Shown one piece after another: positions 7,077-23,102 of a DNA stretch of 64,000 nt. The translations under genes and the position numbers were made by a program. The stretch lies in the NCBI GenBank assembly GCA_030680835.1, contig JAUXUD010000014.1, positions 18,965-82,964 on the forward strand, written 5' to 3'. Positions within the stretch are counted from its first letter, which is position 1, and each line of letters begins with the position of its first letter. Under the pieces are notes generated by a model. The model worked only from the letters and a program-made list of their open reading frames with translations, was not told the origin of the DNA and did no database searches. Source of the stretch: Bacteroidota bacterium (GTDB lineage: Bacteria; Bacteroidota; Bacteroidia; UKL13-3).

Positions 7077-7772
7077 TTGCAGACAATCAATTTCAATAAA
7101 TCTTTTATCAGATGGCGGTTAAAAAATGACTTGTACGGAAGATTTAATATTGAAGCCTGTTGCAGTGTGATAAACATAATAACTTCAACACAGATTGATT
7201 ATTATTTATTAAGTAGTGTTTTAGCTTGCAAGGTATTATCAGGAAAAGATATGTTACATGATCCCGAATACCTTTTTCAAGCCATATTTTCAGAAAGGGA
7301 CTTTAAAATATTCCGCATCAACAACGCTACCGGAGGCATACGGGATACAAACGGTCTGAATATAGAAAACTTCGAAGAAATAAAAGTTCATTTAACACAT
7401 ACTGATTCAAAAAAATTGAATACTCCAAAAGAAATTTATTTAGCAGTTTTTGATCAAAAATCTTTAAACGCTCAGGTATTTTTCAAAATTGGGGAAATAA
7501 AATACGAACTCAGGTTTCCGGTAAAACACATTAACGTACGTTCAACCGATGATAACTGGCAGGTGGAAACCGGACCTGTACTTATGCCTTTCCTGAATCA
7601 TAAATCAGAAGTAAACGCTAATCATTTCCTTCCGGCTTTTATTGCGTTGAATCACAATGGCATTTTTGACTATGCGACTTTTGAAGAAGAAAAGCTGCAC
7701 AATTACTCCACAAGATTTTATCATAAAAAGGAATCATTGAAAGTTGAATCTCAATTACAAATTATTGAATAA
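7077..7772 (+). CDS. hypothetical protein of unknown function. The start is uncertain: TTG at 7077, first ATG at 7251.
   Basis: Long ORF in the operon frame between two oxidoreductase genes. No motif recognised. Confidence 0.35.
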   Translation: MQTINFNKSFIRWRLKNDLYGRFNIEACCSVINIITSTQIDYYLLSSVLACKVLSGKDMLHDPEYLFQAIFSERDFKIFRINNATGGIRDTNGLNIENFEEIKVHLTHTDSKKLNTPKEIYLAVFDQKSLNAQVFFKIGEIKYELRFPVKHINVRSTDDNWQVETGPVLMPFLNHKSEVNANHFLPAFIALNHNGIFDYATFEEEKLHNYSTRFYHKKESLKVESQLQIIE

Positions 7773-7775
7773 ATT

Positions 7776-8714
7776 ATGATCTGGATTATTGGAACAGGAC
7801 TTATGAGCAGGGAATACGCTAAGGTTCTAAAAGCATTAAATAAGGAGTTCATTGCAATAGGAAAAGGAGAAGAAAATTGTGCTCTATTTGAAAAAGAATA
7901 TAGTGTAAAGACAATAAGAGGTGGACTCAATGATTTTCTAAAAACAAAACCTCCTATTCCGGAATCTGTAATTGTTGGAGTTGGAATTGAAGCACTCACT
8001 GAAACAACCATTGCTCTGTTAAATTACGGTATAGGAAAAATTCTTCTCGAAAAACCAGGAGTGGGGTATGCTTCGGAAATAACTGCTGTTTCAGAACTCG
8101 TAAAAGAGCAAAATGCTCACGTCTTACTTGCATATAACAGGAGATTTTACTCCTCTGTTATACAAGCACAAAAAATAATAAAAGATGATGGCGGAGTGGT
8201 TTCATTCAATTTTGAATTTACCGAATGGTCGCACTTAATACGAAACTTAAAGAAGCATAAAACAGAACATCACAATTGGTTCCTGGGAAACTCTACACAT
8301 GTTATTGATACTGCCTTCTATCTTGGTGGTAACCCTAAAGAATTATGTGCTTTTTTCAAAGGTGGTCTAGACTGGCATCCTGCTTCATCTGTTTTTGCAG
8401 GTGCAGGGGTGAGTGAAAACAATGCCTTATTTTCTTACCAGGCAAATTGGGAAGGTCCGGGGCGTTGGGTTATTGAATTGATTACACCCATTCACCGGCT
8501 TATTTTCAAACCTATGGAGACCCTTCAAATCCAAAATATAGGAAGTGTTGCAGTTGAGCCAGTATTAGTTGACGATCATTTAGATAAAGAATTCAAACCC
8601 GGTATCTATTTACAAACAGAAACTTTTATAAAAGGTGATTATTCGAGGTTCTGTTCTGTTCAGGATCAAAAAAATATGATTGAAAAATATTATAATAAAA
8701 TGAGTGGTTATTGA
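7776..8714 (+). CDS. Gfo/Idh/MocA-like oxidoreductase (second copy)
   Basis: N-terminus IIGTGLMSREYA and LLEKPG (EKP motif). Confidence 0.45.
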   Translation: MIWIIGTGLMSREYAKVLKALNKEFIAIGKGEENCALFEKEYSVKTIRGGLNDFLKTKPPIPESVIVGVGIEALTETTIALLNYGIGKILLEKPGVGYASEITAVSELVKEQNAHVLLAYNRRFYSSVIQAQKIIKDDGGVVSFNFEFTEWSHLIRNLKKHKTEHHNWFLGNSTHVIDTAFYLGGNPKELCAFFKGGLDWHPASSVFAGAGVSENNALFSYQANWEGPGRWVIELITPIHRLIFKPMETLQIQNIGSVAVEPVLVDDHLDKEFKPGIYLQTETFIKGDYSRFCSVQDQKNMIEKYYNKMSGY

Positions 8715-9580
8715 TAAAAAATATGAATAAAATAGAAGAATCGACTCAATGGGACCTCATTCTCACCCCGCAAAAGGGGTGGTTCAAACTTGATTTAGGG
8801 GCAATTTGGAGGTATCGGGACCTGCTGATGCTGCTTGTTCGACGAGATATAGTTGCTTTTTACAAGCAGACCATCTTTGGTCCGCTCTGGTATTTTATCC
8901 AGCCGGTATTCACCACCATTGTATTTACTTTTATATTTGGTAAATTAGCTAAACTTTCTACCGATGGACTCCCTCAATCTGTGTTTTATCTCGTTGGAAT
9001 TACTGCATGGAACTATTTTTCAGACTGCTTAATAAAAACATCTACCGTCTTCAGGGATAATCAGGCAATATTCGGTAAGGTTTATTTTCCAAGGATAATA
9101 AGTCCGTTAAGTATTGTTGTTTCCAATCTGCTGAGGTTTGCAATTCAACTTGTCCTTTTGTTAGGTTTAATAATCTATTTTTATTTTCAGGGAGTCATAT
9201 TTCCCATAGGCTGGAATATCTTCTTGTTTCCTGTATTTATTTTGTTTATGGCTATGCAGGGGCTCGGCCTTGGAATGATGGTTACTGCCATGACAAATAA
9301 ATACAAGGACCTATCCATTCTTGTTCCATTTGGTATGCAACTTTTGATGTATGCCACAACAGTTATTTATCCACTTTCCAGTCTCAGTGGAAATATGTAC
9401 CGCATCGTTGCGCTTAATCCCATGACTTATGTCATTGAAGGCATAAAAGCCAGTACGCTTGGTGTTGGCGTACTCACCTTCCAAACTTTTACCTATTCAT
9501 TTCTTGTCTCCGTATTCATCCTTAGCATCGGATATATTATATTTAATAAAGCGGAAAAATCATTTATTGATACCATTTAG
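8711..9580 (+). CDS. wzm: ABC-2 type polysaccharide export permease (Wzm/KpsM/TagG family)
   Basis: Conserved RDIVAFYKQTIFGPLWYFIQP N-terminal motif. The rest is multi-TM hydrophobic. Confidence 0.8.
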   Translation: MIKNMNKIEESTQWDLILTPQKGWFKLDLGAIWRYRDLLMLLVRRDIVAFYKQTIFGPLWYFIQPVFTTIVFTFIFGKLAKLSTDGLPQSVFYLVGITAWNYFSDCLIKTSTVFRDNQAIFGKVYFPRIISPLSIVVSNLLRFAIQLVLLLGLIIYFYFQGVIFPIGWNIFLFPVFILFMAMQGLGLGMMVTAMTNKYKDLSILVPFGMQLLMYATTVIYPLSSLSGNMYRIVALNPMTYVIEGIKASTLGVGVLTFQTFTYSFLVSVFILSIGYIIFNKAEKSFIDTI

Positions 9581-9664
9581 GCAGATGCCCAGTCATCACT
9601 TATGAAGTGGTAGCATTATATTCTTTCTGAGCAATAACTATAATAACCTACAAAAAAAAACTAA

Positions 9665-10957
9665 ATGATCGCAATAAAAGTTGAAAATCTTACCAAAGCA
9701 TATCAGATAGGCCAGTTCACTACCGGCACCTTGTCACGCGATATTGAGCGCTGGTGGGCATTGGCTCGTGGCAAGGAGGATCCGTTCCTGACAATCGGGG
9801 AAACCAATGACCGCTCTAAAAAAGGGAAAAGTGATATCGTCTGGAGCCTGAAAGATCTTAATTTTGAAATCGAACACGGCGAAGCCATTGGCATAATAGG
9901 CAAGAATGGTGCAGGAAAAAGCACCTTGTTGAAAATCTTAAGTCAGGTAACCATGCCAACCGCCGGTACAGTTAAATTGAAAGGCAGGGTAGCGAGTTTA
10001 TTGGAGGTAGGCACCGGCTTTCATCCGGAACTTACGGGCAGGGAAAATATATTCCTGAACGGTGCCATTATGGGGATGCGCAAAAGTGAAATCAAACTCA
10101 AGTTCGATGAAATCGTAGATTTTTCAGGAGTGGATAGGTATATTGATACTCCTGTTAAGAGATATTCATCAGGTATGTATGTAAGGCTCGCCTTTGCTGT
10201 TGCCGCTTATTTAGAAAGTGAAATACTCGTAGTTGATGAAGTACTTGCAGTGGGGGATTATGAATTTCAAAAGAAATGTCTGAGTAAAATGGGGGATTTG
10301 TCCAAAGGAGAGGGCAGAACAATTTTGTTCGTAAGTCATAACTTGCAGAGTATATCCAGTCTCTGTACAAAAGCTATCGTGCTTGTAAATGGTGAAATAA
10401 AATGCAATACCAATGTAACCGAAGCTATCGATTTTTATCAGAAAAGTATTATAAGCGGTAACAATACAATTGAACAAAGCAGAATTGGTGGCAGTGGTCA
10501 GGTCAGAATACAATCAATCAAGATTAAAGACAATCAGGGTATTATTTATTATAATCAGGAAATATGCTTCGAGTTTGAGCTTATTTCAAATTCAAATGAA
10601 ACTATTAATAATATATCATTATGGTTTGGTTTCTCTGATCTGAAAAATAATACAGTAATAAATTCATTCAGTAAAGAAAAAGTTGAAATACTCCCCTTTG
10701 CGACAGCTATATTATTTGTGACATTACCTCCTAACAGGAATTTGATGCCAGGCGAGTATCAGGTAGGATTTAACCTGGCAAAAAATGTTTCAGGTGTTAA
10801 TTACGAGCCACTGGATATGGTTGTTGGTTATCCTGTGTTTAGAGTAATTATTGGTCAGGATACCGGCGATAATCCTGTATCAATGGTTTCTTATTGGCCA
10901 CAAGGTTGGGGCTCGATTGCATACGAAAACAATATTAGAATTGAAAATAAATTATGA
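9665..10957 (+). CDS. wzt: ABC transporter ATP-binding protein Wzt with a C-terminal extension (a putative polysaccharide-terminus binding domain)
   Basis: Walker A GKNGAGKST, signature YSSGM, Walker B ILVVDE. About 180 extra C-terminal residues follow the NBD. Confidence 0.85.
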   Translation: MIAIKVENLTKAYQIGQFTTGTLSRDIERWWALARGKEDPFLTIGETNDRSKKGKSDIVWSLKDLNFEIEHGEAIGIIGKNGAGKSTLLKILSQVTMPTAGTVKLKGRVASLLEVGTGFHPELTGRENIFLNGAIMGMRKSEIKLKFDEIVDFSGVDRYIDTPVKRYSSGMYVRLAFAVAAYLESEILVVDEVLAVGDYEFQKKCLSKMGDLSKGEGRTILFVSHNLQSISSLCTKAIVLVNGEIKCNTNVTEAIDFYQKSIISGNNTIEQSRIGGSGQVRIQSIKIKDNQGIIYYNQEICFEFELISNSNETINNISLWFGFSDLKNNTVINSFSKEKVEILPFATAILFVTLPPNRNLMPGEYQVGFNLAKNVSGVNYEPLDMVVGYPVFRVIIGQDTGDNPVSMVSYWPQGWGSIAYENNIRIENKL

Positions 10958-11730
10958 AAGTAGTAATACTTGCAGGAGGACTCGGAACCCGTATTTCAGA
11001 AGAATCCCATCTAAAACCAAAACCCATGGTTGAAATTGGCGATAAGCCAATACTTTGGCATATCATGAAAAATTTTTCAAGCCAGGGTTTTAACGATTTT
11101 ATTATTTGCCTTGGTTATAAAGGCTATATTATAAAAGAATATTTTTCCAATTATTTTTTGCATAATTCAGACATTACAATTGAAGTAAAAGATAACAATA
11201 TTAAAGTACATAATTCGAATGCAGAAGACTTTATAGTAACTTTAGTTGAAACAGGTTTACACACAAAAACCGCCGGACGCTTAAAAAGAATTCAAACGTA
11301 CGTCAAGGATGAAGAGTTTATACTAACCTATGGTGATGGCGTTTGCGATATTGACCTTCAAAAATTAATCAATTTCCACAAGGGGCATAGCCAGGTGGCT
11401 ACTGTCACAGCTATTCAGCCTGTTGGAAGGTATGGCGTGATGCAAATAAATTCCGATAATTCAGTTGGGGTTTTCATGGAAAAAATGAAGGGAGATGAAG
11501 GTTGGATAAATGGCGGTTATTTTATTTTACGGCCTCAGGTTTTTGACTATTTGCCGCCGGATGCCGACAATGTGATGTGGGAAGAGTCCCCGATGCAGAA
11601 GTTAGCAAAAAATAATCAATTAATGGCTTACCAGCATGAAGGATTTTGGAAATGTATGGATGCTATTCGCGATAAGATTGAGCTTGAAGAAATCTGGAAT
11701 TCAGGAAATGCTAAATGGAAAATCTGGTAA
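10954..11730 (+). CDS. rfbF: glucose-1-phosphate cytidylyltransferase (RfbF/DdhA)
   Basis: The N-terminus is MKVVILAGGLGTRISEES...KPMVEIG. The length (258 aa) is typical. Confidence 0.85.
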   Translation: MKVVILAGGLGTRISEESHLKPKPMVEIGDKPILWHIMKNFSSQGFNDFIICLGYKGYIIKEYFSNYFLHNSDITIEVKDNNIKVHNSNAEDFIVTLVETGLHTKTAGRLKRIQTYVKDEEFILTYGDGVCDIDLQKLINFHKGHSQVATVTAIQPVGRYGVMQINSDNSVGVFMEKMKGDEGWINGGYFILRPQVFDYLPPDADNVMWEESPMQKLAKNNQLMAYQHEGFWKCMDAIRDKIELEEIWNSGNAKWKIW

Positions 11731-11746
11731 AAAAAATAAAAAATAT

Positions 11747-12760
11747 ATGAGAGTATTTGTAACGGGTCATCAGGGATTTATAGGCCCACATTTAATTGAA
11801 ATATTAAAGTCCAAAGGGCATTTTGTAACCGGATGCGATATTAATTTATTTGGCGATTGCAAAATTTCTGAAGTTGTTAAACCTGATATTGAACTTGAAA
11901 AAGACATAAGGAATGTAACAGTTGAAGATTTATATGGCTATGATTGTGTTATGCACCTCGCTGCCATTTCGAACGATCCAATGGGAAATTTTGATCCTGA
12001 ATTAACATACAGCATCAATAAAGAAGGTTCAATAAATATAGGTGCACTGGCAAAAAAAGCCGGTGTAAAAAAGTTTTTATTTTCAAGTAGTTGTTCTATT
12101 TATGGAAAGGGTGAAAGTTTGGATTTAGATGAAAACGCTTCATTTAACCCACTTACCGCTTATGCCATTTCAAAAATAGAAACCGAGAAAGCGGTTAGTA
12201 ACATGGCAGATGAAAATTTCTGTCCGGTTTTTTTACGTAACTCGACCGCTTATGGTTATTCACCAATGTTTAGGATAGATTTAGTAGTAAATAATTTTTT
12301 AGCTTGTGCGGTTGCAAAAGGTGACATTAAAATTATGAGTGATGGTGAACCCTGGCGGCCTTTAGTGCACTGTAGGGATATTGCCAGGGCCTTTGTTGCC
12401 GTTGCAGAAGCTCCTACTGAAACCGTGTTTAACAAAGCCATTAATATTGGCGGAAACAAAGAGAATTACCAGGTAAAAGAAGTAGCTAAATTTGTACAGG
12501 ATTTAATGCCTGAAGCGAATATTGTTTTCACCGGGGAAGTCGGAAACGACCCAAGGGATTACCGTGTGAATTTTGATTTGTTATATAAACTTTTGCCCGG
12601 TTTTGAACTGGAATACACACTTAAAAAAGGAATGAGTGAGTTGTATGGGTATTTGAAAAAATCAAATTTTTCAGCTAAGGATTTTGATGGTGACAGATTT
12701 GTAAGAATGAAATTGTTGAAAAATAATCTTCATAAAATAACAACACCTGATGAAGTTTAA
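11747..12760 (+). CDS. NAD-dependent epimerase/dehydratase (extended SDR) in the CDP-sugar module
   Basis: N-terminus MRVFVTGHQGFIGPHL and the catalytic YAISK (YxxxK). The start is set at the ATG at 11747. The track start at 11636 overlaps upstream. Confidence 0.7.
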   Translation: MRVFVTGHQGFIGPHLIEILKSKGHFVTGCDINLFGDCKISEVVKPDIELEKDIRNVTVEDLYGYDCVMHLAAISNDPMGNFDPELTYSINKEGSINIGALAKKAGVKKFLFSSSCSIYGKGESLDLDENASFNPLTAYAISKIETEKAVSNMADENFCPVFLRNSTAYGYSPMFRIDLVVNNFLACAVAKGDIKIMSDGEPWRPLVHCRDIARAFVAVAEAPTETVFNKAINIGGNKENYQVKEVAKFVQDLMPEANIVFTGEVGNDPRDYRVNFDLLYKLLPGFELEYTLKKGMSELYGYLKKSNFSAKDFDGDRFVRMKLLKNNLHKITTPDEV

Positions 12761-13295
12761 ACCAACGAATTTTGAAGGTTTAATTCTTGTAGAATCGGAG
12801 CCAAAAGGTGACGAAAGAGGATGGTTTGCAAGAACATTTTGCAAGGAAGAGTTTAAGCAAATAGGCCATACCGAGGAATGGTTGCAAACCAATCATTCTT
12901 ATACGCAACATAGCGGGACCATAAGAGGTATTCACTATCAACTTCCTCCATATCAGGAAATAAAGTTGGTTCGGTGTATTGCAGGTTCCGTATTCGATGT
13001 GGTGGTGGATATCAGGAAAAATTCATCCACCTTTTTACAGTGGTTTAGTATTGAACTTTCGGCAACCAATAAAAAAGCGATATATATACCCAAAGGCTTT
13101 GCACATGGTTTTCAAACCCTAAGCAATGATTGTGAACTTATTTATTATCATACACAATTTTATACGCCAAACAGCGAAGCTGCGATAAGGTATAACGATG
13201 AAATGATAAATATAAAATGGCCCTTACTTGTGACCGATATGTCGGATAAAGATAAAAGCCATCCACTACTCACAAAAGATTATAAAGGAATATAA
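12750..13295 (+). CDS. RmlC-like cupin NDP-4-keto-6-deoxyhexose 3,5-epimerase family
   Basis: 181 aa. ERGWFARTF...IRGIHYQ is typical of the dTDP-4-dehydrorhamnose 3,5-epimerase fold. Confidence 0.65.
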   Translation: MKFKPTNFEGLILVESEPKGDERGWFARTFCKEEFKQIGHTEEWLQTNHSYTQHSGTIRGIHYQLPPYQEIKLVRCIAGSVFDVVVDIRKNSSTFLQWFSIELSATNKKAIYIPKGFAHGFQTLSNDCELIYYHTQFYTPNSEAAIRYNDEMINIKWPLLVTDMSDKDKSHPLLTKDYKGI

Positions 13296-13297
13296 TT

Positions 13298-15634
13298 ATG
13301 CAATGCAGATTTTGTAAAACTGAATTAGTACATGAGTTTATTGACCTGGTTAATTGTCCTGCAAGCAATAGCTTTCTTACCATAGAACAACTTAGCGAAC
13401 CTGAAGTTTTTTACCCCTTAAAAGTTTATACTTGTCACAAATGTTTTTTGGTGCAGGTAGATGAGTACAAAAAATCGGATGCTATTTTTAGCAGCGATTA
13501 CGTTTATTTTTCTTCATTCTCTACTACCTGGCTGCAACACAGCAAAGCTTACGTTGAAAAAATGATTCAACGTTTTGACTTTGATCAAAATTCATTCGTG
13601 ATGGAGATCGCCAGTAATGACGGATATTTGCTGCAATATTTTAAAGAAAAAGGAGTGCCAGTTTTAGGGATTGAACCAACTATAAATACTGCTAACGCTG
13701 CCAGGGAAAAAGGTATTGAAAGTGTAAATGAATTTTTCGGAACAGCGCTAGCAACCAGCTTAGCCCAACAAAAAAAGCCGGATCTTTTATTGGGAAATAA
13801 TGTCCTCGCTCATGTGCCGGATATTGTAGATTTTGTTGCCGGAATGAAAATTGTATTGGCTGATAAAGGTGTGATAACTATGGAGTTCCCGCACCTATTG
13901 CAATTGGTTGACAATAACCAGTTCGACACCATTTATCACGAGCATTTTTCTTACTTATCTTTCTTCACGGTAAAACAGATTTTTGAATCCCGCGGACTTG
14001 AAATGTTTGATGTGGAAGAGATTCCCACACATGGTGGTTCTCTTCGTATTTATGCCAAACATAAAGGTGATTCATCCAAACCCATATCTGCAAATGTTCA
14101 ACAATTAATCAATAAGGAAATAAGTTCCGGTATTAATAATATCGAATATTATAACGGTTTCTTTAAAAGGGCTCAAACTGTTAAAATAGATTTATTGAAT
14201 TTTTTGATTAAACAGAAAAACGAAGGGAAAACTGTCGCTGCATATGGAGCTGCTGCCAAAGGTAACACGCTGTTGAACTTTTGTGGAATTAAAAATGATT
14301 TGATCAGTTTTGTTGTGGATGCGAATCCTGCCAAACAAAACAAATTCTTACCCGGTAGCCATATTCCGGTGATGAATGAGGCATACTTGAAGAATACAAA
14401 ACCTGCTTATGTTATCATCTTTCCCTGGAATCTTAAGGAAGAGATCGTGAAACAATTAGATTATATTAATGAATGGGAAGGGAAATTTGTCATACCCATT
14501 CCGAAATTAGAAATTATGAACACCGCAGTACAACAAAGGATCCCAATTTCAAAACCTTCTATTACCCAGTTAGAAATTAATTATGTGAATGATGCCATAA
14601 CTAATGGATGGGGATCCCATTGTTATGATTATATCATTCGTTTTCAAAAATTATTCGCATCCTATTTGAAATCGGATTATGCCTTGGCTACTTCAAGTTG
14701 TACCGGGGCCATACATCTTGCTTTTCTTTCTATCGGGTTACAACCCGGAGACGAAGTGATATGTCCTGATATCACCTGGATAGCCTCAGTAGCCCCTATC
14801 ACTTATATCGGAGCAAAACCGGTATTTGTTGACGTTAAAAAAGACACCTGGTGTATTGATCCTGAAAAAATTGAACAGGCAATTACCTCCAGAACAAAAG
14901 CCATCATGCCTGTGCACCTATACGGAAATGTATGTGAAATGGATGAGATCATGGCAATTGCAAAAAAATATAATTTGTTTGTCATCGAAGACGCTGCGGA
15001 GGCTTTGGGCTCTGAATATAAGGGAAAGAAAGTTGGCAGCATCGGAGACTTTGGCGCATTTTCTTTTCACGGCACAAAAACGATGACTACAAGTGAAGGC
15101 GGGATGCTGGTGACAAACAATAAAACTTTGTTTGATGAAGCATTAATTTACAATGATCATGGCAGAGACCATCGGAATCCCAAAACATTCTGGATGGAGC
15201 GGATTGGCTATAAATATAAAATCTCAAACTTACAGGCTGCCTTAGGTTGTGCACAGGTTGAACGGCTTGAAGATTTAGTGAATAAAAAAAGGGAAATATT
15301 TAATAGCTACAAAACACTTTTAAATGGTTTGCCCGGTTTGAGCATGAATGCAGAACAGGAATATGTAAAAAACAGTTACTGGATGCCAACAATCATATTT
15401 GACGAACCGGTAAATTTTAACAGGGAAAATTTATTTGCACAAATGAAAGAACACAATATTGACAGCAGGCCTTTCTTTTACCCCTTATCCTTTCTGCCTA
15501 TGTTTGAAACAAAAAAAGAAAACACCGTGTCATATGGTATTTATGATAGAGGAATTAATCTTCCAAGCTATTATGACATTACTCAAAAAGAAATTGAAAA
15601 AGTGGTTAATGTTATTAAAAGTAAAGTAAAGTGA
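13298..15634 (+). CDS. bifunctional fusion protein: NDP-hexose C-methyltransferase (TylCIII/EvaC family) fused to a DegT/DnrJ/EryC1 PLP aminotransferase
   Basis: The N-terminus CRFCKTELVHEFIDLVNCPASNSF is the zinc-ribbon start of sugar C-methyltransferases. A SAM-methyltransferase core follows (about 410 aa). The C-terminal ~370 aa has the DegT PLP-lysine motif (FSFHGTKTMT). It is one uninterrupted 778-aa ORF. Confidence 0.7.
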   Translation: MQCRFCKTELVHEFIDLVNCPASNSFLTIEQLSEPEVFYPLKVYTCHKCFLVQVDEYKKSDAIFSSDYVYFSSFSTTWLQHSKAYVEKMIQRFDFDQNSFVMEIASNDGYLLQYFKEKGVPVLGIEPTINTANAAREKGIESVNEFFGTALATSLAQQKKPDLLLGNNVLAHVPDIVDFVAGMKIVLADKGVITMEFPHLLQLVDNNQFDTIYHEHFSYLSFFTVKQIFESRGLEMFDVEEIPTHGGSLRIYAKHKGDSSKPISANVQQLINKEISSGINNIEYYNGFFKRAQTVKIDLLNFLIKQKNEGKTVAAYGAAAKGNTLLNFCGIKNDLISFVVDANPAKQNKFLPGSHIPVMNEAYLKNTKPAYVIIFPWNLKEEIVKQLDYINEWEGKFVIPIPKLEIMNTAVQQRIPISKPSITQLEINYVNDAITNGWGSHCYDYIIRFQKLFASYLKSDYALATSSCTGAIHLAFLSIGLQPGDEVICPDITWIASVAPITYIGAKPVFVDVKKDTWCIDPEKIEQAITSRTKAIMPVHLYGNVCEMDEIMAIAKKYNLFVIEDAAEALGSEYKGKKVGSIGDFGAFSFHGTKTMTTSEGGMLVTNNKTLFDEALIYNDHGRDHRNPKTFWMERIGYKYKISNLQAALGCAQVERLEDLVNKKREIFNSYKTLLNGLPGLSMNAEQEYVKNSYWMPTIIFDEPVNFNRENLFAQMKEHNIDSRPFFYPLSFLPMFETKKENTVSYGIYDRGINLPSYYDITQKEIEKVVNVIKSKVK

Positions 15635-15662: not shown

Positions 15663-16304
15663 ATGCAAAATCATACCCTTATCAATAAAATCAAGTCTCA
15701 AAATATCGTTTATGATGTAATTCGAGATGACCAAACTGTTATCTCGCAACTATTACCAGTTAATTATAAAATAATCAACGATGACTTTTTAATTAACCAG
15801 CTTACAAAGTGGCGTAATGAATCAATGCGTTTTTTTAAATCCCAGTTTAAATCTACATCAGAAGGCACTAAAACCTGGCTCACAGAAAAAATAGTACCAG
15901 CTAACGATAGAATATTATTTTTAGTGTCCAGTAAAGGAAAGGTAGTTGGACATTTTGGATTATGTAATATAACAGATATTTCAGCAGAATTAGATAATGC
16001 AATACGTGGTGAAATTGGAGGGCCATCAGATTTATTTGCCTTTGTTGAAAAAACTTTATTGAATATATCGTTTACTGAATTAAACGTTGAACAGGTGGTT
16101 GCTAAGGTGTTTTCTAATAATATTTTTGCTTTGCAATTGCATAAGAATCTTGGTTTTCAAGAAAAAAACCGAGTACCACTAAAATTAATAATATCTGAAA
16201 ACAAAAAGGTTTATGAAGAATGTTTAAGAAAAGACGCTAATGTAAATTTTGATTATGCAGAATTAGTTATTAGCAAGTCTGATTATATGGAAATACATAA
16301 GTGA
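15663..16304 (+). CDS. GNAT-family N-acyltransferase (a putative amino-sugar N-acylase)
   Basis: GNAT core pattern (VVGHFGL...LHKNLGF). It is adjacent to the ACP, SDR and ligase genes. Confidence 0.5.
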   Translation: MQNHTLINKIKSQNIVYDVIRDDQTVISQLLPVNYKIINDDFLINQLTKWRNESMRFFKSQFKSTSEGTKTWLTEKIVPANDRILFLVSSKGKVVGHFGLCNITDISAELDNAIRGEIGGPSDLFAFVEKTLLNISFTELNVEQVVAKVFSNNIFALQLHKNLGFQEKNRVPLKLIISENKKVYEECLRKDANVNFDYAELVISKSDYMEIHK

Positions 16305-16354
16305 GCAACTTATTAATAATGAGTGAAACTAATAGTCCATAAAATTTAATTTAG

Positions 16355-16699
16355 ATGAGTAGAAGACCTAAATTTATAAATAAAATGTTACAAAGAGAAA
16401 AAATAAAAGAAATAGTATTAAATACTATCAAGGAGTTTCAAGTTGAACTTGATGATGATAATTTTAATCTCAATGAAGGTGAAACAACACGCTTATTTGG
16501 AGGTGGAGCTTCGCTTGATTCTTTAAGCCTGGTAAGGTTGATTATACAAATTGAAGAAGCTATTGAAGAACATTTAAATATTTCAATTGTATTGGCAAGC
16601 GAACAAGCGATGTCTAGAAGGACTAGTCCTTTTTCACGAATTTCATATCTTATTGACTATATTTATGAGTTAGTTAATACTCAACAAAATGGAAAGTAA
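16355..16699 (+). CDS. acyl carrier protein-like
   Basis: GGGASLDSLSLVRL contains the DSL phosphopantetheine attachment motif. Confidence 0.6.
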   Translation: MSRRPKFINKMLQREKIKEIVLNTIKEFQVELDDDNFNLNEGETTRLFGGGASLDSLSLVRLIIQIEEAIEEHLNISIVLASEQAMSRRTSPFSRISYLIDYIYELVNTQQNGK

Positions 16700-17396
16700 T
16701 AAGGTAATTTTAATCACCGGGAGTCGTAAAGGAATAGGAAGAGGTCTTGCAGAATATTATTTAGAAAAAAAATATTTCGTTGTTGGCTGTAGTAGGCTTG
16801 CATCTGATTTATCTCATTCTAATTATCTTCATTTTACGCTTGATATTTCTGATGAACTTGCAGTAAAAAAGATGATGATATCTGTCAAAGACAAATTTGG
16901 AAAACTTGATATTTTAATTAATAATGCAGGAATTGCATCAATGAATCATGTATTACTTACACCTCTTTCAACAGTTATTAAGTTATTTGAAACTAATTTC
17001 TTAGGGACTTTTTTATGTAGCAGAGAAGCAGTAAAATTGATGCAAAAAAAGAAATTTGGCAGAATAGTCAATCTAACCAGTATAGCTGTCCCATTACAAT
17101 TGGAGGGTGAAGCTATTTATGCTTCATCAAAATCTGCAGTTGAGCAACTGACTAAAAATATGGCTAAAGAATTAGGAGTTTTTGGTATAACAATGAACGC
17201 AATTGGCCCAACACCTATTGAAACTGACTTAATTAAAGCCGTTCCAAAAAATAAGATTGAAGATTTATTAGATAAACAAACTATTAAAAGATATGGAAAC
17301 CTAAATGATATTATCAACATCGTAGAATTCTTTATTTCGCCAAATAGTTCATTTATCACCGGCCAAATTCTTTATCTTGGAGGAATTGTAAAATAA
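16689..17396 (+). CDS. SDR-family oxidoreductase (3-oxoacyl-ACP reductase FabG-like)
   Basis: TGSRKGIGRG (TGxxxGxG) and YASSKSAVEQL (YxxxK). Confidence 0.8.
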   Translation: MESNKVILITGSRKGIGRGLAEYYLEKKYFVVGCSRLASDLSHSNYLHFTLDISDELAVKKMMISVKDKFGKLDILINNAGIASMNHVLLTPLSTVIKLFETNFLGTFLCSREAVKLMQKKKFGRIVNLTSIAVPLQLEGEAIYASSKSAVEQLTKNMAKELGVFGITMNAIGPTPIETDLIKAVPKNKIEDLLDKQTIKRYGNLNDIINIVEFFISPNSSFITGQILYLGGIVK

Positions 17397-17403
17397 ACAA
17401 ACT

Positions 17404-18765
17404 ATGTTTAATAATTTATTTGTAAATAAAATATTCTCATTTACCGACAATGTTGCAGTAATCATAAATGATATTTCATTTACATATGTTCATTTAAATG
17501 AATCAGTAAAAAAAGCTTGTAAATTTCTTATTGAGCAGAAAATTATTCCTGGAAAATCAGTGGTAATTAAAGCCGATTATAATTTTGAAAGTATCTCTCT
17601 TTTTTTAGCATTAATTGAAAATAGAAATATTATTATACCAATTACAACAAAAAACACTGTAGAATTTAATGATAGACTAAATGAAGCTAATTGTGATTTT
17701 ATTATTACCATTGTTAATGGAGAATTTGAAACCGAAATAATAAATAAAGACCAAGCAAACACTTCTCATTATCTTATTTCTGAAATAGTAGAAAAAGATG
17801 TATCTGGACTCATATTATTCAGTAGCGGAAGCACAGGTCGACCAAAAGCCATGATTCACAATCTGGATAATATCACCTCTACCTTCATGGATAAAAGAGG
17901 CAAACCTTTGATTTTTTTAGTTTTTCTAAGTTTCGATCATATAGGTGGTTTAAATACACTATTTAATTGTTTGGCCATGGGTGCAACCATTGTGATTCCT
18001 AATGAGCGTAAACCTGAAATAATATGCAATTTAATTCAAAAATATAAGATTTCCATTTTGCCATCAAGTCCAACTTTTTTGAATTTGTTGTTAATCAGTA
18101 AAGCTCATGAACACTACGATTTATCTAGCTTAAAAATGATTACCTATGGAACAGAGCCAATGCCAGAAAGTTTATTATTAAAATTAAGAACAGAATTACC
18201 TCATGTAAGATTTATGCAAACCTTTGGAACAAGCGAAACCGGAATAGTAAAAACACAAAGTAAGTCATCAAGTAGTTTATTTTTAAAATTTGAAGATCCT
18301 AACCAAGAACATAAAATTGTTGATGGAGAATTATGGTTAAGAAGCAAAACACAAATTTTAGGTTACTTAAATCATTCAAATGAAAGCTTTACTAAAGATG
18401 GATGGTTTAAAACTGGTGACATTGTAGAAGTGTTGGAAGATGGTTACTTAAAAATTATCGGAAGATCTAAAGAAATAATTAATATAGGAGGAGAAAAAGT
18501 ACTTCCCATGGAAGTAGAAAACCTTATTTTGCAAATAGACGGAGTCAACGATTGTGTTGTTTTCGGACAGCAAAATGCAATCATGGGCCAAATAGTTACT
18601 GCAAATATTAGCATAAACGAAAAATCTGATCCTGTTCAGATTAAGAAGGAAGTAATAAAACTTTGTAAGGAAAAACTTGATAATTATAAAATTCCTTCAA
18701 AGGTTAATATTGTTTCAATGATTGATTTTAATGACCGATTTAAAAAAGACAGAAAACTTCAATAA
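17404..18765 (+). CDS. AMP-dependent synthetase/ligase (acyl-ACP/acyl-CoA ligase-like)
   Basis: AMP-binding motif LFSSGSTGRPKA and a downstream GTSETG-like motif (FGTSETGI). Confidence 0.8.
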   Translation: MFNNLFVNKIFSFTDNVAVIINDISFTYVHLNESVKKACKFLIEQKIIPGKSVVIKADYNFESISLFLALIENRNIIIPITTKNTVEFNDRLNEANCDFIITIVNGEFETEIINKDQANTSHYLISEIVEKDVSGLILFSSGSTGRPKAMIHNLDNITSTFMDKRGKPLIFLVFLSFDHIGGLNTLFNCLAMGATIVIPNERKPEIICNLIQKYKISILPSSPTFLNLLLISKAHEHYDLSSLKMITYGTEPMPESLLLKLRTELPHVRFMQTFGTSETGIVKTQSKSSSSLFLKFEDPNQEHKIVDGELWLRSKTQILGYLNHSNESFTKDGWFKTGDIVEVLEDGYLKIIGRSKEIINIGGEKVLPMEVENLILQIDGVNDCVVFGQQNAIMGQIVTANISINEKSDPVQIKKEVIKLCKEKLDNYKIPSKVNIVSMIDFNDRFKKDRKLQ

Positions 18766-18843
18766 AGCTTCAATTTTTAGTTATTATAAACCACTGCATT
18801 CAGCATTACATATTAAATCATTCAACAAATATAAAAATAAAAT

Positions 18844-19578
18844 ATGGATCCAATTAACCAATTTAACGAAGAAAAAAAACAAAATATTGAAGCGCTTGGA
18901 AAAAATGAGGATCTAAATCAGTTAGGCCTTGATTTTTTGATTGACACGGCTAAAGACAAGTATACTTACAATTTTACCTGGATGGGGCGACCCATTATTG
19001 CTTTTCCACAAGATATGGTTGCAATGCAGGAAATTATTTGGGATGTAAAACCGGAGTTAATAATTGAAACTGGAGTTGCCCACGGTGGATCTATTGTATA
19101 CTATGCGTCTTTGCTTGAGCTTTTGGGCAATAATGGCCTCGTGGTGGGTATAGACATTGATATACGCGCACATAACAGGAAATTAATTGAAGAGCACCCC
19201 ATGAGCAAAAGGATCAAATTGGTGGAAGGTTCTTCTATTAGTGAAAAAGTGTTTGATGAGGTTAAAAATATTGCTAAAGGCAGGAATAAAATAATGATCT
19301 GCCTTGATAGCAATCATACGCACGAACATGTTTTGGAGGAATTAAAACTTTATGCCCCGCTAACATCTGTTGGCAGTTATTGCGTGGTGTTTGATACCGT
19401 AGTTGAAGATATGCCGGATAGTCATTTTGAAAACCGTCCGTGGGGGCATGGCAATAATCCCAAAACTGCTGTTTGGGAATTTCTTAAAACACATGAAGAG
19501 TTTGAAATCGACAAGGGTATTCAAGACAAGCTGCTGATTACCGTCGCGCCGGATGGTTATTTGAAGAGGATTAGGTAA
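18844..19578 (+). CDS. CmcI/cephalosporin-hydroxylase-family class I methyltransferase (sugar O-methyltransferase-like)
   Basis: WMGRPIIAFPQDM...IIETGVAHGGS is typical of the CmcI/rhamnosyl O-methyltransferase family. Confidence 0.65.
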   Translation: MDPINQFNEEKKQNIEALGKNEDLNQLGLDFLIDTAKDKYTYNFTWMGRPIIAFPQDMVAMQEIIWDVKPELIIETGVAHGGSIVYYASLLELLGNNGLVVGIDIDIRAHNRKLIEEHPMSKRIKLVEGSSISEKVFDEVKNIAKGRNKIMICLDSNHTHEHVLEELKLYAPLTSVGSYCVVFDTVVEDMPDSHFENRPWGHGNNPKTAVWEFLKTHEEFEIDKGIQDKLLITVAPDGYLKRIR

Positions 19579-21915: not shown

Positions 21916-23102
21916 ATATTTTAATTGGGAATACCCAGGAATTTAATCCTCAAATAGGTGGAGTGGAGATGGTTTCCTCCATCCTGGCTAAGGTATTTAC
22001 TGAAATGGGACACAAAGTTTTTTTTGTTGCCTGTCTCAAATCGCCTTATAGTAAGATGTATGTGCCGGCAGTTGAACAAACCCTATTACCGGATAAAACC
22101 TACGACTCTGTCATTAACAAACAAAAACTTCTTTCGGTTTGTGCAGATAAAAAAATTGAGATCATACTGAATCAGGCAGGAAATATTGCAGAATTTACAA
22201 GACTCTGCGCCTTTGTTTCAAAAGAACAGCAAATTCCATTGATTTCAGCAATTCACATAAACCCCTTAAATAAAATTTCGGCAATAAAGGATTATAAATT
22301 TTCTGCCATTAACAAATTTAGCTATCTAAAAGGATTTGGAAGAATGTTATTAATGCCGCTGAGATATAGACGTATTTATATGGAGGAACAGATATTATAT
22401 GGGGAAGTATGTTCAACAAGTGATAAAGTAGTTCTGTTATCAAAGGGTTATTTAAAAGAATTGGAATATCTAACAGGGAAAGGTTATTTAAAAAACGTAA
22501 TTGCGATAGCAAACCCAGTGAATTCTAAATTTCTCAACAAACCAATAATTAAAGAAAAAATTGTTTTGTTTGTTGGCCGGTTAGATTTTGATCATAAGAG
22601 ACCCGACCGGTTAATTTGCATCTGGGAGAGAATGTATAAAAATTATCCGGATTGGAAACTAAAATTTGCCGGCGATGGCCCATTCAAAAAACAATTGATG
22701 GATTATATTGTCAAAAAAGGAATTCGGAATGTTGAGTTTCTGGGTTTTTGTGACACCAGTAAACAATATCAGAACGCATCAATACTCTGTTTAACTTCCA
22801 CAATTGAAGGCTTGCCAATGGTATTGTTAGAAGGTATTAGTTATGGGTGCATCCCCCTTTCCTTCGATAGTTTTAATAGTGTTTTTGACGTTATTGAAAA
22901 CAATAAAAACGGCTTTATTATTCAATCATATCATTTAAAAAAATATGAAATAAAATTGCGATTACTGATGGACAATGAAGAACTGCGTGCAACAATGTGC
23001 CAAGAGTCAATTGAATCAAGCCATAAATTTGAACCTCATTCAATGGCTTCAGATTGGATCTCATTATTTACAGAAGCAATAAACACAAAGAAGCATGAAT
23101 AG
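21912..23102 (+). CDS. glycosyltransferase family 4 (GT-B, RfaG-like)
   Basis: C-terminal motif EGLPMVLLEGISYGCIPLSFD (E-x7-E). Confidence 0.7.
   Translation: MNILIGNTQEFNPQIGGVEMVSSILAKVFTEMGHKVFFVACLKSPYSKMYVPAVEQTLLPDKTYDSVINKQKLLSVCADKKIEIILNQAGNIAEFTRLCAFVSKEQQIPLISAIHINPLNKISAIKDYKFSAINKFSYLKGFGRMLLMPLRYRRIYMEEQILYGEVCSTSDKVVLLSKGYLKELEYLTGKGYLKNVIAIANPVNSKFLNKPIIKEKIVLFVGRLDFDHKRPDRLICIWERMYKNYPDWKLKFAGDGPFKKQLMDYIVKKGIRNVEFLGFCDTSKQYQNASILCLTSTIEGLPMVLLEGISYGCIPLSFDSFNSVFDVIENNKNGFIIQSYHLKKYEIKLRLLMDNEELRATMCQESIESSHKFEPHSMASDWISLFTEAINTKKHE

Follow-up and report, generated by a model that had tools for sequence, protein, structure and literature searches.

The window, a 64,000-nucleotide stretch of a contig from a Bacteroidota bacterium, contains at positions 15663-18765 four intact, tightly packed plus-strand genes that encode a GNAT acyltransferase, a divergent acyl carrier protein (ACP), a FabG-like SDR reductase and an adenylate-forming ligase (Table 1). 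These four consecutive open reading frames coincide exactly with those delimited in an initial annotation of this DNA, whose four gene identities are correct as judged by Pfam and NCBIfam matches, motifs and predicted folds. Successive genes are spaced by +28, +50, -11 (an overlap), +7 and +78 nt. The GC content of the four genes is 29-30%, compared with 35-39% in flanking genes, and their GC3 is 17-22%, compared with 27-38%. Their common low GC and GC3, the short gaps between them and the overlap of ACP and SDR genes mark the four as one block.

Table 1. The four-gene block and adjacent export and sugar genes (window coordinates)
Feature	Position	Strand	Details
Wzm-like ABC-2 permease (ABC-transporter-dependent glycan export)	8711..9580	+	Pfam ABC2_membrane 75 bits
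Wzt-like ABC ATPase with C-terminal Wzt_C carbohydrate-binding domain	9665..10957	+	Pfam ABC_tran 80 bits; Wzt_C 33.7 (cutoff 30.4)
Glucose-1-phosphate cytidylyltransferase (makes CDP-glucose)	10954..11730	+	NCBIfam TIGR02623 393.6 bits (cutoff 300)
Extended SDR in the position of CDP-glucose 4,6-dehydratase, non-orthologous to the dehydratase	11708..12760 (alternative start 11636)	+	TIGR02622 only 25 bits
RmlC-like sugar-nucleotide 3,5-epimerase	12750..13295	+	TIGR01221 187 bits (cutoff 156); Pfam dTDP_sugar_isom 219 bits
Fusion of sugar 3-C-methyltransferase (residues 1 to ~407) and DegT-type C4 aminotransferase (~411 to 778)	13298..15634	+	Pfam Methyltransf_13, Methyltransf_14, DegT
GNAT N-acyltransferase, proposed transferase onto the sugar C4 amine	15663..16304	+	213 aa; Pfam Acetyltransf_4
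Divergent stand-alone ACP	16355..16699	+	114 aa; LDSL motif with Ser56; profile and model evidence
Classical FabG-like SDR reductase	16689..17396	+	235 aa; 11 nt overlap with ACP gene; adh_short
ANL-superfamily adenylate-forming ligase, proposed ACP loader	17404..18765	+	453 aa; AMP-binding
CmcI / rhamnosyl O-methyltransferase-like methyltransferase	18844..19578	+	Pfam RMNT_CmcI 319 bits

The GNAT scores 38.2 bits against its Pfam model (cutoff 24.3), and its family comprises 646 representatives at E<1e-10. Foldseek groups the AlphaFold2 model (pLDDT 96.7) with GNATs including PseH; the nearest structural neighbours (SpeG, PseH and a B. cereus acetyltransferase) are all CoA-dependent, and no known acyl-ACP user is among them. 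PseH, which N-acetylates UDP-4-amino-4,6-dideoxy-AltNAc, is also the best match at the level of families and of PDB sequences. The two proteins have their fold and a WRN motif in common, and PseH acts on the C4 amine of an NDP-sugar, as is proposed for the window GNAT. However, the GNAT scores 37 bits against the PseH model (cutoff 93), has N- and C-terminal extensions of ~40 residues each, and resides in a CDP-sugar pathway rather than a Pse context.

The ACP, whose true start is likely Met11 at 16385, matches no model in Pfam or NCBIfam. A profile of its family, for which at least 1,849 relatives were found, finds no PDB entries other than ACPs and D-alanyl carrier proteins (best E 0.011), and NCBI labels this exact protein "acyl carrier protein." The AlphaFold2 model (pLDDT 85) has four helices with Ser56, the phosphopantetheine site (codon at 16520-16522), at the N-terminus of helix II, and its best Foldseek matches are mitochondrial ACPs (probability 0.98). 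Both the serine context and the ACP fold are therefore kept. The family's invariant motifs are LFG..LDS..LV and AMSRR.SPF.

The SDR scores 150 bits against adh_short, and its best NCBIfam matches are FabG models for 3-oxoacyl-ACP reductases at 157-159 bits, below their cutoffs of ~296-298. Its motifs are TGSRKGIG (an NADP-type glycine motif), NNAG, Asn103, Ser131 and Y144xxxK148, and the SDRs encoded after the ACP in at least 18 loci share 48-66% identity with it. The ligase (125 bits against AMP-binding) carries SSGSTGRPKA at residues 140-149. All catalytic motifs are kept: the ANL core motifs A3, A4, A5, A7, A8 and A10 are present and conserved across 19 aligned ligases of the ACP-SDR-ligase trio, to which the window ligase is 35-60% identical. 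Judged by motifs and fold, ACP, SDR and ligase all look active. The ligase is also 40% identical over 446 residues (339 bits) to ligases of cassettes from Bradyrhizobium and Burkholderia plasmids, in which ligase, SDR and ACP are joined by a type I polyketide synthase (PKS), ketosynthase first.

One reading of the ligase and ACP is that they constitute a DltA/DltC-like aminoacyl pair, in which case an amino acid would be loaded, modified by the SDR and transferred to give an N-aminoacyl sugar. D-alanyl carrier proteins rank second and third among the PDB matches of the ACP family profile, several family members are labelled "D-alanine--poly(phosphoribitol) ligase subunit 2" by JGI, the ligase scores 118 bits against TIGR01733 (amino-acid adenylation), and the invariant Phe177-Asp178 in its A4 motif resembles the FDxS of amino-acid adenylation domains. 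However, the ligase is nearer to MenE and acyl-CoA ligases (170-184 bits) and to the PKS-priming ligases just described, DltA is absent from its best 60 PDB matches, and it is hard to see what a FabG-type SDR would do with an aminoacyl thioester. We regard an aminoacyl pair as very improbable. The invariant Asp178, which lies beside His179, could point to an amino- or hydroxy-substituted ligase substrate, which counts against the pathway preferred below.

The genes upstream of the block have counterparts in other loci: orthologues of the permease precede the sugar cassette in L024 and L027, and cytidylyltransferase orthologues (47-63% identical) occur in L024, L027, L034 and L035. The extended SDR lacks the Asp-Lys dyad of the dehydratase, with SSCSIYG in place of the TTDKVYEN seen in L024, L027, L031, L034 and L035. 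Its best PDB match is 6vo6/6vo8 (81.6 bits), with SP..R.DL.VN.F in common, and 6vo6 is, we presume, the C4-dehydrogenase Cj1427. Cj1427 functions as a C4-dehydrogenase (PMC10680097), and the extended SDR is possibly one as well. The end product had first been annotated as a dideoxyhexose; in the window, an enzyme resembling a C4-dehydrogenase stands in for the CDP-glucose 4,6-dehydratase, which makes the term "dideoxy" doubtful here.

The N-terminal half of the fusion protein matches TylC3 (4rv9), KijD1 (5t64) and TcaB9 in the PDB, and the C-terminal half matches a sugar aminotransferase (7b0m) and perosamine synthases. The 3-C-methyltransferase and aminotransferase are two separate genes in L024, L025, L027, L031, L034 and L035. 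The predicted activities of the upstream enzymes fit a C4-amino, C3-methyl sugar. The CmcI-like methyltransferase most likely acts on this sugar, and its orthologues (51-72% identical) end the cassette in every variant, including L027, which is without the acyl module.

ACP, SDR and ligase are syntenic in ~19 of the 22 loci found via the ACP, which come from seven or more phyla (Bacteroidota, Planctomycetota, Verrucomicrobiota, Desulfobulbaceae, Gammaproteobacteria, Chloroflexota and Myxococcota). These loci are a biased sample, since genomes were scanned with a single strict peptide, ADE[KR]AMSRR. An N-acyltransferase is nearby at 13 of 23 sites, the window included: a NeuD/PglD-like left-handed beta-helix (LbH) protein at eight, other LbH proteins in L018 and L021, PseH-type GNATs in L006 and L010, and the GNAT of the window. 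The amino-sugar N-acyltransferases usually beside the trio are of unrelated folds. By its genomic context, the trio is a conserved module apparently tied to amino-sugar N-acylation. Extended variants, which add KASIII and a further ACP and SDR, are present in L002-L005, L026 and L033.

Nonulosonic-acid loci with the trio include L004, L005 and L010, the last being a complete pseudaminic-acid locus where the trio sits between pseH and pseI. The same three annotations are found between pse genes in flagellin glycosylation islands of Aeromonas (PMC7874193), where orf1-orf3 of polar-flagellin group II are annotated as ACP, 3-oxoacyl-ACP reductase and AMP-dependent synthetase (PMC7874193). By annotation, their order is that of the trio, and they lie among pse genes as in L010; unlike the window trio, they are accompanied by luxE and luxC.

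GNAT homologues with 32-52% identity lie directly after C-methyltransferase and aminotransferase genes in L024, L026, L027, L029, L031, L032, L034, L035 and L037. Since these CDP-sugar genes (3-C-methyltransferase and C4 aminotransferase) always precede the GNAT homologues, in loci without nonulosonic-acid genes, the acceptor is likely the amine made by the upstream aminotransferase, as originally proposed. An ACP gene follows the GNAT in nine of ten GNAT-family loci (the window, L024, L026, L029 and L031-L035); L037, where ACP queries gave no match next to the GNAT, is not counted here. The ACPs belong to differing module types, namely ACP-SDR-ligase, ACP-SDR-MBL-KASIII-ligase and an unrelated ACP-ligase-SDR lineage. 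That different ACP modules were seemingly recruited independently beside orthologous GNATs argues for functional coupling of GNAT and ACP, and this comparative context backs the suggestion in the initial annotation that an ACP-dependent acyl supply feeds the GNAT. In view of the trio's synteny and the recurrence of GNAT followed by ACP, the four-gene arrangement is not due to chance.

The sole exception among the ten loci is L027, which has a homologous GNAT (38% identity) and no ACP module. This GNAT presumably works without such a module, and thus the family can probably use a CoA donor. The window GNAT might accordingly be an ordinary acetyl-CoA-dependent N-acetyltransferase of the CDP-amino sugar, with the trio's product used by another enzyme, for example to N-acylate the nonulosonic acid encoded at the start of the window. 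The CoA-dependent structural neighbours of the GNAT would agree with this, as would the nonulosonic-acid loci that the trio serves elsewhere, including those of Aeromonas, and the window itself has nonulosonic-acid genes (370-7772) and a GT52 gene (23095-24144). However, the low GC and GC3 of the GNAT are those of the trio and not of the sugar genes, and an ACP from one of several module lineages directly follows the GNAT in nine of ten loci that are devoid of nonulosonic-acid genes. Moreover, no other acyltransferase was found within ~30 kb downstream of the block, the next being a hexapeptide-repeat protein (48568-49149). We consider an acetyl-CoA-dependent role improbable.

It is probable, on comparative grounds, that the four genes serve to place an ACP-borne short hydroxyacyl group on the C4 amine of a CDP-3-C-methyl-amino sugar. 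In the pathway that we infer (each catalytic step, the GNAT's acyl donor, the acid and the precise sugar included), the ANL ligase would adenylate a small carboxylic substrate and thioesterify it onto the phosphopantetheine arm at Ser56 of the ACP. The FabG-like SDR would then convert the ACP-bound intermediate to a hydroxyacyl-ACP, and the GNAT would pass the acyl moiety to the C4 amine of a CDP-linked 3-C-methyl-4-amino hexose. This sugar would be made by the genes just upstream (cytidylyltransferase, C4-oxidising SDR, RmlC-like epimerase and fusion protein), O-methylated by the CmcI-like enzyme, and incorporated into a glycan that the neighbouring Wzm/Wzt transporter would export.

Of the characterised cassettes built from an ACP, an ANL ligase and an SDR, the nearest is MacpD, MupQ and MupS, the "priming cassette" of mupirocin and thiomarinol biosynthesis, which converts malonyl-CoA to 3-hydroxypropionyl-ACP (PMC10098928). 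Malonyl-CoA is loaded via its free carboxylate and the CoA thioester is then reduced, with neither loading of a keto- or hydroxy-acid nor reduction of a ketone (PMC10098928). Both cassettes are contiguous and combine an ANL ligase and a FabG-like SDR with a dedicated ACP that exceeds housekeeping ACPs in length, and the ketosynthase, second ACP and second ketoreductase that follow trio variants mirror the MmpF/MacpA/MupD extension step. The ACP of the Bradyrhizobium cassette matches MacpD (6tg5) at E 1.3e-10 (next match 0.004), and MacpD gives the window ACP model its highest query-normalised TM-score (0.62). No sequence similarity was detected between the window ACP and MacpD, and the window SDR, at 26-29% identity, is no closer to SDRs of Bradyrhizobium/Burkholderia-type cassettes than to SDRs generally. 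The window ligase and SDR are putative homologues of MupQ and MupS in two steps, by way of the Bradyrhizobium cassette. The systems differ in gene order (ACP-SDR-ligase versus macpD-mupQ-mupS), and the window ACP belongs to a sequence subfamily other than that of MacpD, set apart by its invariant AMSRR.SPF motif. The mupirocin product enters a polyketide or fatty-acid synthase, whereas that of the window is proposed to go to the GNAT and an NDP-sugar amine.

By analogy, we tentatively suggest that the first two steps follow MacpD/MupQ/MupS chemistry. The ligase would activate a dicarboxylyl-CoA, for example malonyl- or succinyl-CoA, at its free carboxylate, and the SDR would turn the CoA-thioester end into a primary alcohol, yielding 3-hydroxypropanoyl-ACP or 4-hydroxybutanoyl-ACP.

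A rather less likely possibility, in line with the initial annotation, is that the acid loaded is free and short, either a keto-acid or a hydroxy-acid (acetoacetate, pyruvate or 3-hydroxybutyrate), so that the SDR performs a simple ketoreduction and the GNAT transfers 3-hydroxybutanoyl or lactyl. This route departs from the preferred pathway in the first two steps only. Because the best family matches of the SDR are ketoacyl reductases, it fits this enzyme equally well. The KASIII variants in L026 and L033 would form a beta-ketoacyl-ACP, needing exactly FabG-type reduction. In addition, 3-hydroxybutanoyl is, as far as is known, the hydroxyacyl group most often N-linked to bacterial amino sugars and nonulosonic acids, and one trio lies inside the Pse locus L010; N-acyl kansosamine carries 2-methoxypropanoyl (O-methyl-lactyl), which would fit pyruvate reduced to lactyl. 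However, no characterised ligase/SDR/ACP cassette was found to work in this way, and the one characterised reduces a thioester. Free acetoacetate is, to our knowledge, not a common metabolite. The 3-hydroxybutanoyl group mentioned in the initial annotation stays a candidate, but only one of several, because MacpD/MupQ/MupS works otherwise and 40% identity places the window ligase with those of MacpD-type cassettes.

The window cassette is most likely an uncharacterised version of a known bacterial way to vary surface polysaccharides. The block was initially compared with the rfbKLMNO (wbeKLMNO) tetronate module of Vibrio cholerae O1. The rest of that module consists of an Fe-alcohol dehydrogenase, a LuxC/LuxE-like reductase and a different transferase, where the window has one SDR and the GNAT; the dehydrogenase and LuxC/LuxE-like components are absent here, and the comparison is one of analogy only. 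Within the V. cholerae O-antigen locus, the dedicated ACP RfbK and the ANL ligase RfbL are proposed to activate a small hydroxy-acid that is destined for a 4-amino-4,6-dideoxyhexose (PMC12208996). By description, both loci pair a dedicated ACP and ANL ligase with ABC-transporter export, and the window C4 aminotransferase is closest to perosamine synthases; the acceptor is GDP-perosamine in V. cholerae and would be a CDP-3-C-methyl sugar here.

Another Bacteroidota system is wfpC-wfpG of Flavobacterium psychrophilum, predicted to synthesise N-3,5-dihydroxyhexanoyl and transfer it to UDP-QuiNAc4N (PMC6519341). Here too an O-polysaccharide-specific ACP is the predicted hydroxyacyl donor to a 4-amino sugar, and the extended trio loci L002-L005 resemble wfpC-wfpG in having a PglD/NeuD-like transferase, KASIII and ketoreductase. 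The wfp genes differ from the window in encoding two ketosynthases and no ligase, and their transferase is a left-handed beta-helix protein, not a GNAT.

N-acyl kansosamine, from the lipooligosaccharide of Mycobacterium kansasii, is an N-acylated 4-amino-4,6-dideoxy-3-C-methyl-2-O-methyl-L-hexose whose acyl group is small and oxygenated. The class of sugar predicted for the window, at first thought to be undescribed, is therefore already represented by this compound. N-acyl kansosamine exists in the M. kansasii lipooligosaccharide (PMC4403928), and the species-specific genes for it encode, among others, a glucose-1-phosphate cytidylyltransferase, an epimerase/dehydratase, a rhamnose-type epimerase and a methyltransferase (PMC4403928 Table 1); the pathway logic is that of the window. 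The mycobacterial compound belongs to an actinobacterial glycolipid rather than a Bacteroidota polysaccharide, and the window sugar, unlike N-acyl kansosamine, may retain its 6-hydroxyl.

The window, from an uncultured Bacteroidota genome, carries a one-strand series of polysaccharide genes throughout, and the four + strand open reading frames of the initial annotation, for a GNAT acyltransferase, an ACP, an SDR, and an ANL ligase, are present exactly as described there. The four genes have a GC content of 29 to 30% and a GC3 of 17 to 22%, compared with 35 to 39% and 27 to 38%, respectively, in the sugar genes on either side. There is an 11-nt overlap between the ACP and SDR genes and a 7-nt gap between the SDR and ligase genes. 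The four genes behave as a single unit.

Polysaccharide genes of the window, in order of position
Position	Feature	Remarks
370-7772	Nonulosonic-acid genes	NeuC-like epimerase, CBS-domain nucleotidyltransferase, CMP-sugar synthetase, HisF/HisH-like amidotransferase genes, two GFO-type oxidoreductases; the pathway probably starts upstream of the window
8711-10957	Wzm/Wzt	
10954-15634	CDP-sugar pathway	
11708-12760	Extended SDR	Second gene of the sugar cassette
13298-15634	778-residue methyltransferase/aminotransferase fusion	
15663-18765	GNAT-ACP-SDR-ligase block	
15663-16304	GNAT	
16355-16699	ACP	
16689-17396	SDR	
17404-18765	ANL ligase	
18844-19578	CmcI-like methyltransferase	
	Many glycosyltransferases	Include a GT52 sialyltransferase-like gene at 23095-24144; more sugar pathways downstream
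34965-50389	Further sugar genes, same strand	FdtA-like isomerase and aminotransferase; FnlA-like (Polysacc_synt_2), UDP-GlcNAc 2-epimerase, and GDP-mannose 4,6-dehydratase genes; initiating Bac_transf sugar transferase; hexapeptide acyltransferase adjoining another DegT aminotransferase

At the sequence level, the ACP is the weakest of the four assignments. No Pfam PF00550 or NCBIfam ACP model matches it at E ≤ 0.01, and a single-sequence search of the PDB returned nothing at E ≤ 10. Other evidence is consistent with the assignment. A profile of the family finds only ACPs and D-alanyl carrier proteins (DltC) in the PDB (E values from 0.011 to 2), and LFG...LDS..LV is invariant in an alignment of 33 family members. 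The AlphaFold2 model (pLDDT 85) shows a bundle of four helices, at residues 6-32, 56-74, 83-87, and 96-112, and its top Foldseek matches are mitochondrial ACPs (probability 0.98). The serine context on which the initial annotation had made the assignment depend is retained, with Ser56 lying in an LDSL motif at the start of predicted helix II. Because homologs begin near Met11, position 16385 is the likelier start of the gene. No phosphopantetheinyl transferase was found among the window ORFs scanned (370 to 55681).

The protein belongs to an ACP subfamily of at least 1,849 sequence clusters. Its hallmark is an invariant A-M-S-R-R-x-S-P-F at residues 85-93, which spans helix III and the following loop and is absent from ordinary ACPs. 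The two arginines of AMSRR.SPF could bind a partner enzyme or an anionic cargo, for example an intermediate that carries CoA.

The SDR scores 150 bits on adh_short and has the classical tetrad (Asn103, Ser131, and Tyr144-Lys148), together with TGSRKGIG at residues 10-17, which fits the NADP-type glycine motif TGxxxGxG. Because its scores on the FabG equivalog models (157 to 159 bits) are below their cutoffs of about 296 to 298, it is FabG-like rather than FabG. The ligase scores above cutoff on both AMP-binding (125 bits) and AMP-binding_C (40.5 bits). The possibility raised in the initial annotation that it is a pseudo-enzyme was rejected, because every motif is intact: SSGSTGRPKA (A3), GTSE (A5), TGD (A7), GR..E.IN.GGEK (A8), and RFK447K with the A10 lysine, in addition to an invariant Phe-Asp-His in A4. 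The ANL motifs are conserved across the 19 ligases aligned from ACP-SDR-ligase trios.

The first gene of the block encodes a member of the GNAT superfamily, with 38.2 bits on Pfam Acetyltransf_4 against a gathering score of 24.3. The top Foldseek matches of its AlphaFold2 model (pLDDT 96.7) are all GNATs (probability 1.00), with SpeG, PseH, and a B. cereus acetyltransferase as its closest structural neighbors. On the PseH equivalog model TIGR03585 it reaches 37.1 bits, under the curated cutoff of 93.1; the GNAT beside the same type of trio in a pseudaminic-acid locus (L010) scores 94.5 bits on that model. A k-mer homology search gave only one relative, whereas an exhaustive HMMER search gave 646 representatives at E < 1e-10. 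For a metagenome scan, an alignment of 25 sequences was too diverse; one of six sequences worked, but yielded only 7 loci. Two entries (P0101 and P0104) lie on contigs too short for informative context.

The GNAT gene resides directly 3' of a C4-aminotransferase gene in 10 of 10 related loci, and a 3-C-methyltransferase is also seen in those with enough upstream sequence. The recurring gene order is cytidylyltransferase, CDP-glucose 4,6-dehydratase, RmlC, 3-C-methyltransferase, aminotransferase, GNAT, acyl module, and CmcI-like methyltransferase, and this cassette often comes just after Wzm-Wzt. A role for the GNAT in the nonulosonic-acid pathway, acting on a precursor of such an acid, was rejected because its orthologs accompany CDP-sugar genes in loci devoid of nonulosonic-acid genes.

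An ACP follows the GNAT in 9 of 10 loci, a count that comprises the window and nine other loci and leaves out L037, where no ACP query matched next to the GNAT. The ligase and SDR of one module lineage (L024 and L034) are only 28% and 27% identical to those of the window. This repeated occurrence of orthologous GNATs with non-orthologous ACP modules is the strongest argument that the GNAT draws its acyl group from the ACP. The family can also function without an ACP module, as in L027. If the GNAT merely uses acetyl-CoA, the locus is an ordinary one.

Acyl modules beside the GNAT gene in the window and related loci
Module	Loci
ACP-SDR-ligase	Window, L035; partly seen in L031 and L032
ACP-SDR-MBL hydrolase-KASIII-ligase	L026, L033
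ACP (77 aa)-ligase (413 aa)-SDR (240 aa), different lineage	L024, L034
Short ACP	L029 (locus truncated)
None	L027

The trio also occurs apart from this GNAT family. When one genome per species was scanned with the conserved peptide of the ACP as query, 22 loci emerged, in Bacteroidota, Planctomycetota, Verrucomicrobiota, Desulfobulbaceae, Gammaproteobacteria, Chloroflexota, and Myxococcota. The SDR (48 to 66% identity) and the ligase (35 to 60%) lie 3' of the ACP in about 19 of the 22. In eight loci, the trio neighbors a left-handed beta-helix (LbH) acyltransferase of NeuD/PglD-like type, which is usually accompanied by KASIII and by an additional ACP and SDR. Other LbH acyltransferases are found in L018 and L021, and a PseH-type GNAT is directly upstream of the trio in L006 and L010. 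The last of these is a full pseudaminic-acid locus, with the order PseB-PseC-...-PseF-PseG-PseH-[ACP-SDR-ligase]-...-PseI. The trio has the look of a portable source of acyl donors for the N-acylation of amino sugars. In flagellin glycosylation islands of Aeromonas, the same three annotations are located between pse genes, without assigned function (PMC7874193). At 10321-12226 of L006, from a Bacteroidia MAG, two unrelated genes split the trio between ACP and SDR. They encode a 508-aa protein starting with a PIN-like motif and a 133-aa protein, and look like an insertion into the operon.

A biochemically characterized system suggests what acyl group the trio might supply. In mupirocin biosynthesis, MacpD, MupQ, and MupS produce 3-hydroxypropionyl-ACP from malonyl-CoA; the ketosynthase MmpF takes up this product, and 3,5-dihydroxypentanoyl-ACP is formed with the ketoreductase MupD (PMC10098928). 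The window shares with that priming cassette a contiguous ACP, ANL ligase, and SDR (PMC10098928), but its gene order, ACP-SDR-ligase, is different. Variants of the trio that include KASIII and an additional ACP and SDR run parallel to the mupirocin extension step.

In a translated plasmid search, the window ligase aligned over 446 residues, at 40% identity, with ligases on Bradyrhizobium and Burkholderia plasmids (339 bits to that of Bradyrhizobium); the ligase and SDR identities given here for priming cassettes are to these plasmid proteins. In the plasmid cassettes, the order is ligase-SDR-ACP, and a type I polyketide synthase with a ketosynthase as its first domain comes next. The best PDB match of the Bradyrhizobium cassette ACP is MacpD (6tg5; E value 1.3e-10, next match 0.004). 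Thus, the plasmid cassettes are priming cassettes of the MacpD type, and their ligases form one family with the window ligase. The window SDR is 26 to 29% identical to the plasmid-cassette SDRs, which is no closer than SDRs in general. The window ACP resembles MacpD in fold only, with no sequence match; MacpD gives the highest query-normalized TM-score for its model (0.62).

We tentatively propose, as a reading that is on the unlikely side when taken as a whole, that a polyketide-type priming cassette has been recruited to glycan synthesis, in which malonyl- or succinyl-CoA is converted to an omega-hydroxyacyl-ACP that would serve the GNAT as direct donor, in place of an acyl-CoA, for N-acylation of an NDP-sugar. 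In the mechanism that we prefer, the ligase would load a dicarboxylyl-CoA onto the ACP through its free carboxylate, and the SDR would then reduce the thioester to yield the omega-hydroxyacyl-ACP. A serious rival is a keto-acid route along the lines of the initial annotation, in which ketoreduction would lead to a 3-hydroxybutanoyl or lactyl group. By its sequence, the SDR may be either a ketoreductase or a thioester reductase. Literature searches for ACP-linked 3-hydroxybutanoyl groups in O-antigens or gene clusters found nothing relevant. We know of no demonstrated acyl-ACP-dependent GNAT that acts on a nucleotide sugar and, likewise, of no demonstrated priming cassette in polysaccharide synthesis. 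If the priming-cassette proposal is true, the AMSRR.SPF subfamily of ACPs would mark a widespread, unrecognized route to hydroxyacyl decorations on bacterial surface sugars.

The genes upstream of the block indicate the probable acceptor. The cytidylyltransferase (TIGR02623) and the RmlC-like epimerase (TIGR01221) score above equivalog cutoffs. In the 778-residue fusion, the 3-C-methyltransferases TylC3, KijD1, and TcaB9 are matches of the N-terminal half, and C4 aminotransferases, including perosamine synthases, are matches of the C-terminal half. A cytidylyltransferase, 3,5-epimerase, 3-C-methyltransferase, and C4 aminotransferase, as expected for a kansosamine-like pathway, are therefore all present. 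The methyltransferase and aminotransferase form a single ORF in the window, and are separate abutting genes in six related loci (L024, L025, L027, L031, L034, and L035). This ORF could be a real fusion, or could result from a lost stop codon or an assembly error; it is present in both the NCBI MAG and the Logan assembly, but these may share the same reads.

In five related loci, the second gene of the cassette encodes a true CDP-glucose 4,6-dehydratase with the motif TTDKVYEN (457 bits on TIGR02622 in L024). The extended SDR of the window scores 25 bits on this model, has SSCSIYG in place of TTDKVYEN, and lacks the Asp-Lys dyad, and no other copy of a CDP-glucose dehydratase is found within the window. 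Its best PDB match is 6vo6/6vo8, which we take to be Cj1427, a C4-dehydrogenase that oxidizes its substrate without 6-deoxygenation. If a Cj1427-like C4-dehydrogenase does stand in for the 4,6-dehydratase, the window acceptor may keep its 6-hydroxyl and be a 4-amino-4-deoxy-3-C-methyl hexose. Alternatively, the extended SDR may be an unusual dehydratase. It adjoins the RmlC-like epimerase, a pairing as in the C. jejuni heptose pathway.

For the related loci that carry the dehydratase, the predicted product is an N-acyl-4-amino-4,6-dideoxy-3-C-methyl-O-methyl-L-hexose, which is the constitution of the N-acyl kansosamine of M. kansasii. N-acyl kansosamine exists in that species, whose specific lipooligosaccharide genes include those for a glucose-1-phosphate cytidylyltransferase, an epimerase/dehydratase, a rhamnose epimerase, and a methyltransferase (PMC4403928). 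Although L027 lacks an acyl module, it retains the CmcI-like methyltransferase. The most likely substrate of this enzyme is therefore the sugar, and methylation of an acyl hydroxyl was rejected on these grounds. Because the sugar cassette is repeatedly found directly after Wzm/Wzt, the methylated, N-acylated sugar might be a chain-terminating cap recognized by Wzt, by analogy with other ABC-dependent O-antigens. The Wzt beside the cassette has a C-terminal carbohydrate-binding domain, and Wzm/Wzt precede the cassette in the window, L024, and L027.

Many serotypes of O-antigens, capsules, and flagellins are defined by small N-acyl groups, such as hydroxybutanoyl, hydroxypropanoyl, glyceroyl, and tetronyl, on amino sugars or nonulosonic acids. 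To our knowledge, the enzymes that make and attach these groups are mostly unassigned. The rfbKLMNO genes of V. cholerae encode an ACP, a ligase, an Fe-alcohol dehydrogenase, a LuxC/LuxE-like reductase, and RfbO. The likeness to this module drawn in the initial annotation is apt as a logic but fails in composition, in that only the ACP and ligase have analogs within 15663-19578, where a Pfam search detected none of the domains of Fe-ADH, LuxC, and LuxE. Earlier proposals that an ACP supplies N-acyl groups for O-antigen sugars concern RfbK/RfbL of V. cholerae O1 (PMC12208996) and wfpC-G of F. psychrophilum (PMC6519341).

The principle of ACP-dependent acylation is already known, but the particular combination appears to be new: a GNAT transferase, a distinct and very widespread ACP subfamily, a ligase related to priming cassettes, and a kansosamine-like CDP-sugar acceptor. 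The searchable literature contains no biochemical characterization of these parts in a glycan context. The trio is a concrete candidate for a portable ACP-SDR-ligase module that is present in at least seven phyla and plugs into three unrelated kinds of sugar N-acyltransferase, and our analysis ties it to a biochemically characterized polyketide starter-unit cassette. If confirmed, it would make N-acyl decorations predictable from genomes, provide enzymes for glyco-engineering, and offer a biosynthetic model for kansosamine-type sugars.

A window-type trio is also located at 5055-12674 on a plasmid of Rhizobium sp. T1470 (L038), where the ACP has SERAVSRRISPF and the SDR and ligase are 39% and 43.5% identical to those of the window. 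Its neighbors are a weakly GNAT-like 290-aa protein, a NeuD-like LbH transferase, a CmlS-type halogenase, and an alpha/beta hydrolase, and the locus looks like one for small-molecule biosynthesis rather than for a glycan. The association with an LbH transferase and a CmlS-like halogenase on this plasmid indicates that the module occurs outside glycan loci as well. Some trio loci (L011, L014, L016, and L019) reside in exopolysaccharide regions of the exosortase/PEP-CTERM type (EpsH exosortase, polysaccharide deacetylase, Poly_export); the window ligase scores 125 bits on TIGR03098 ("exosortase A system-associated acyl-CoA ligase").
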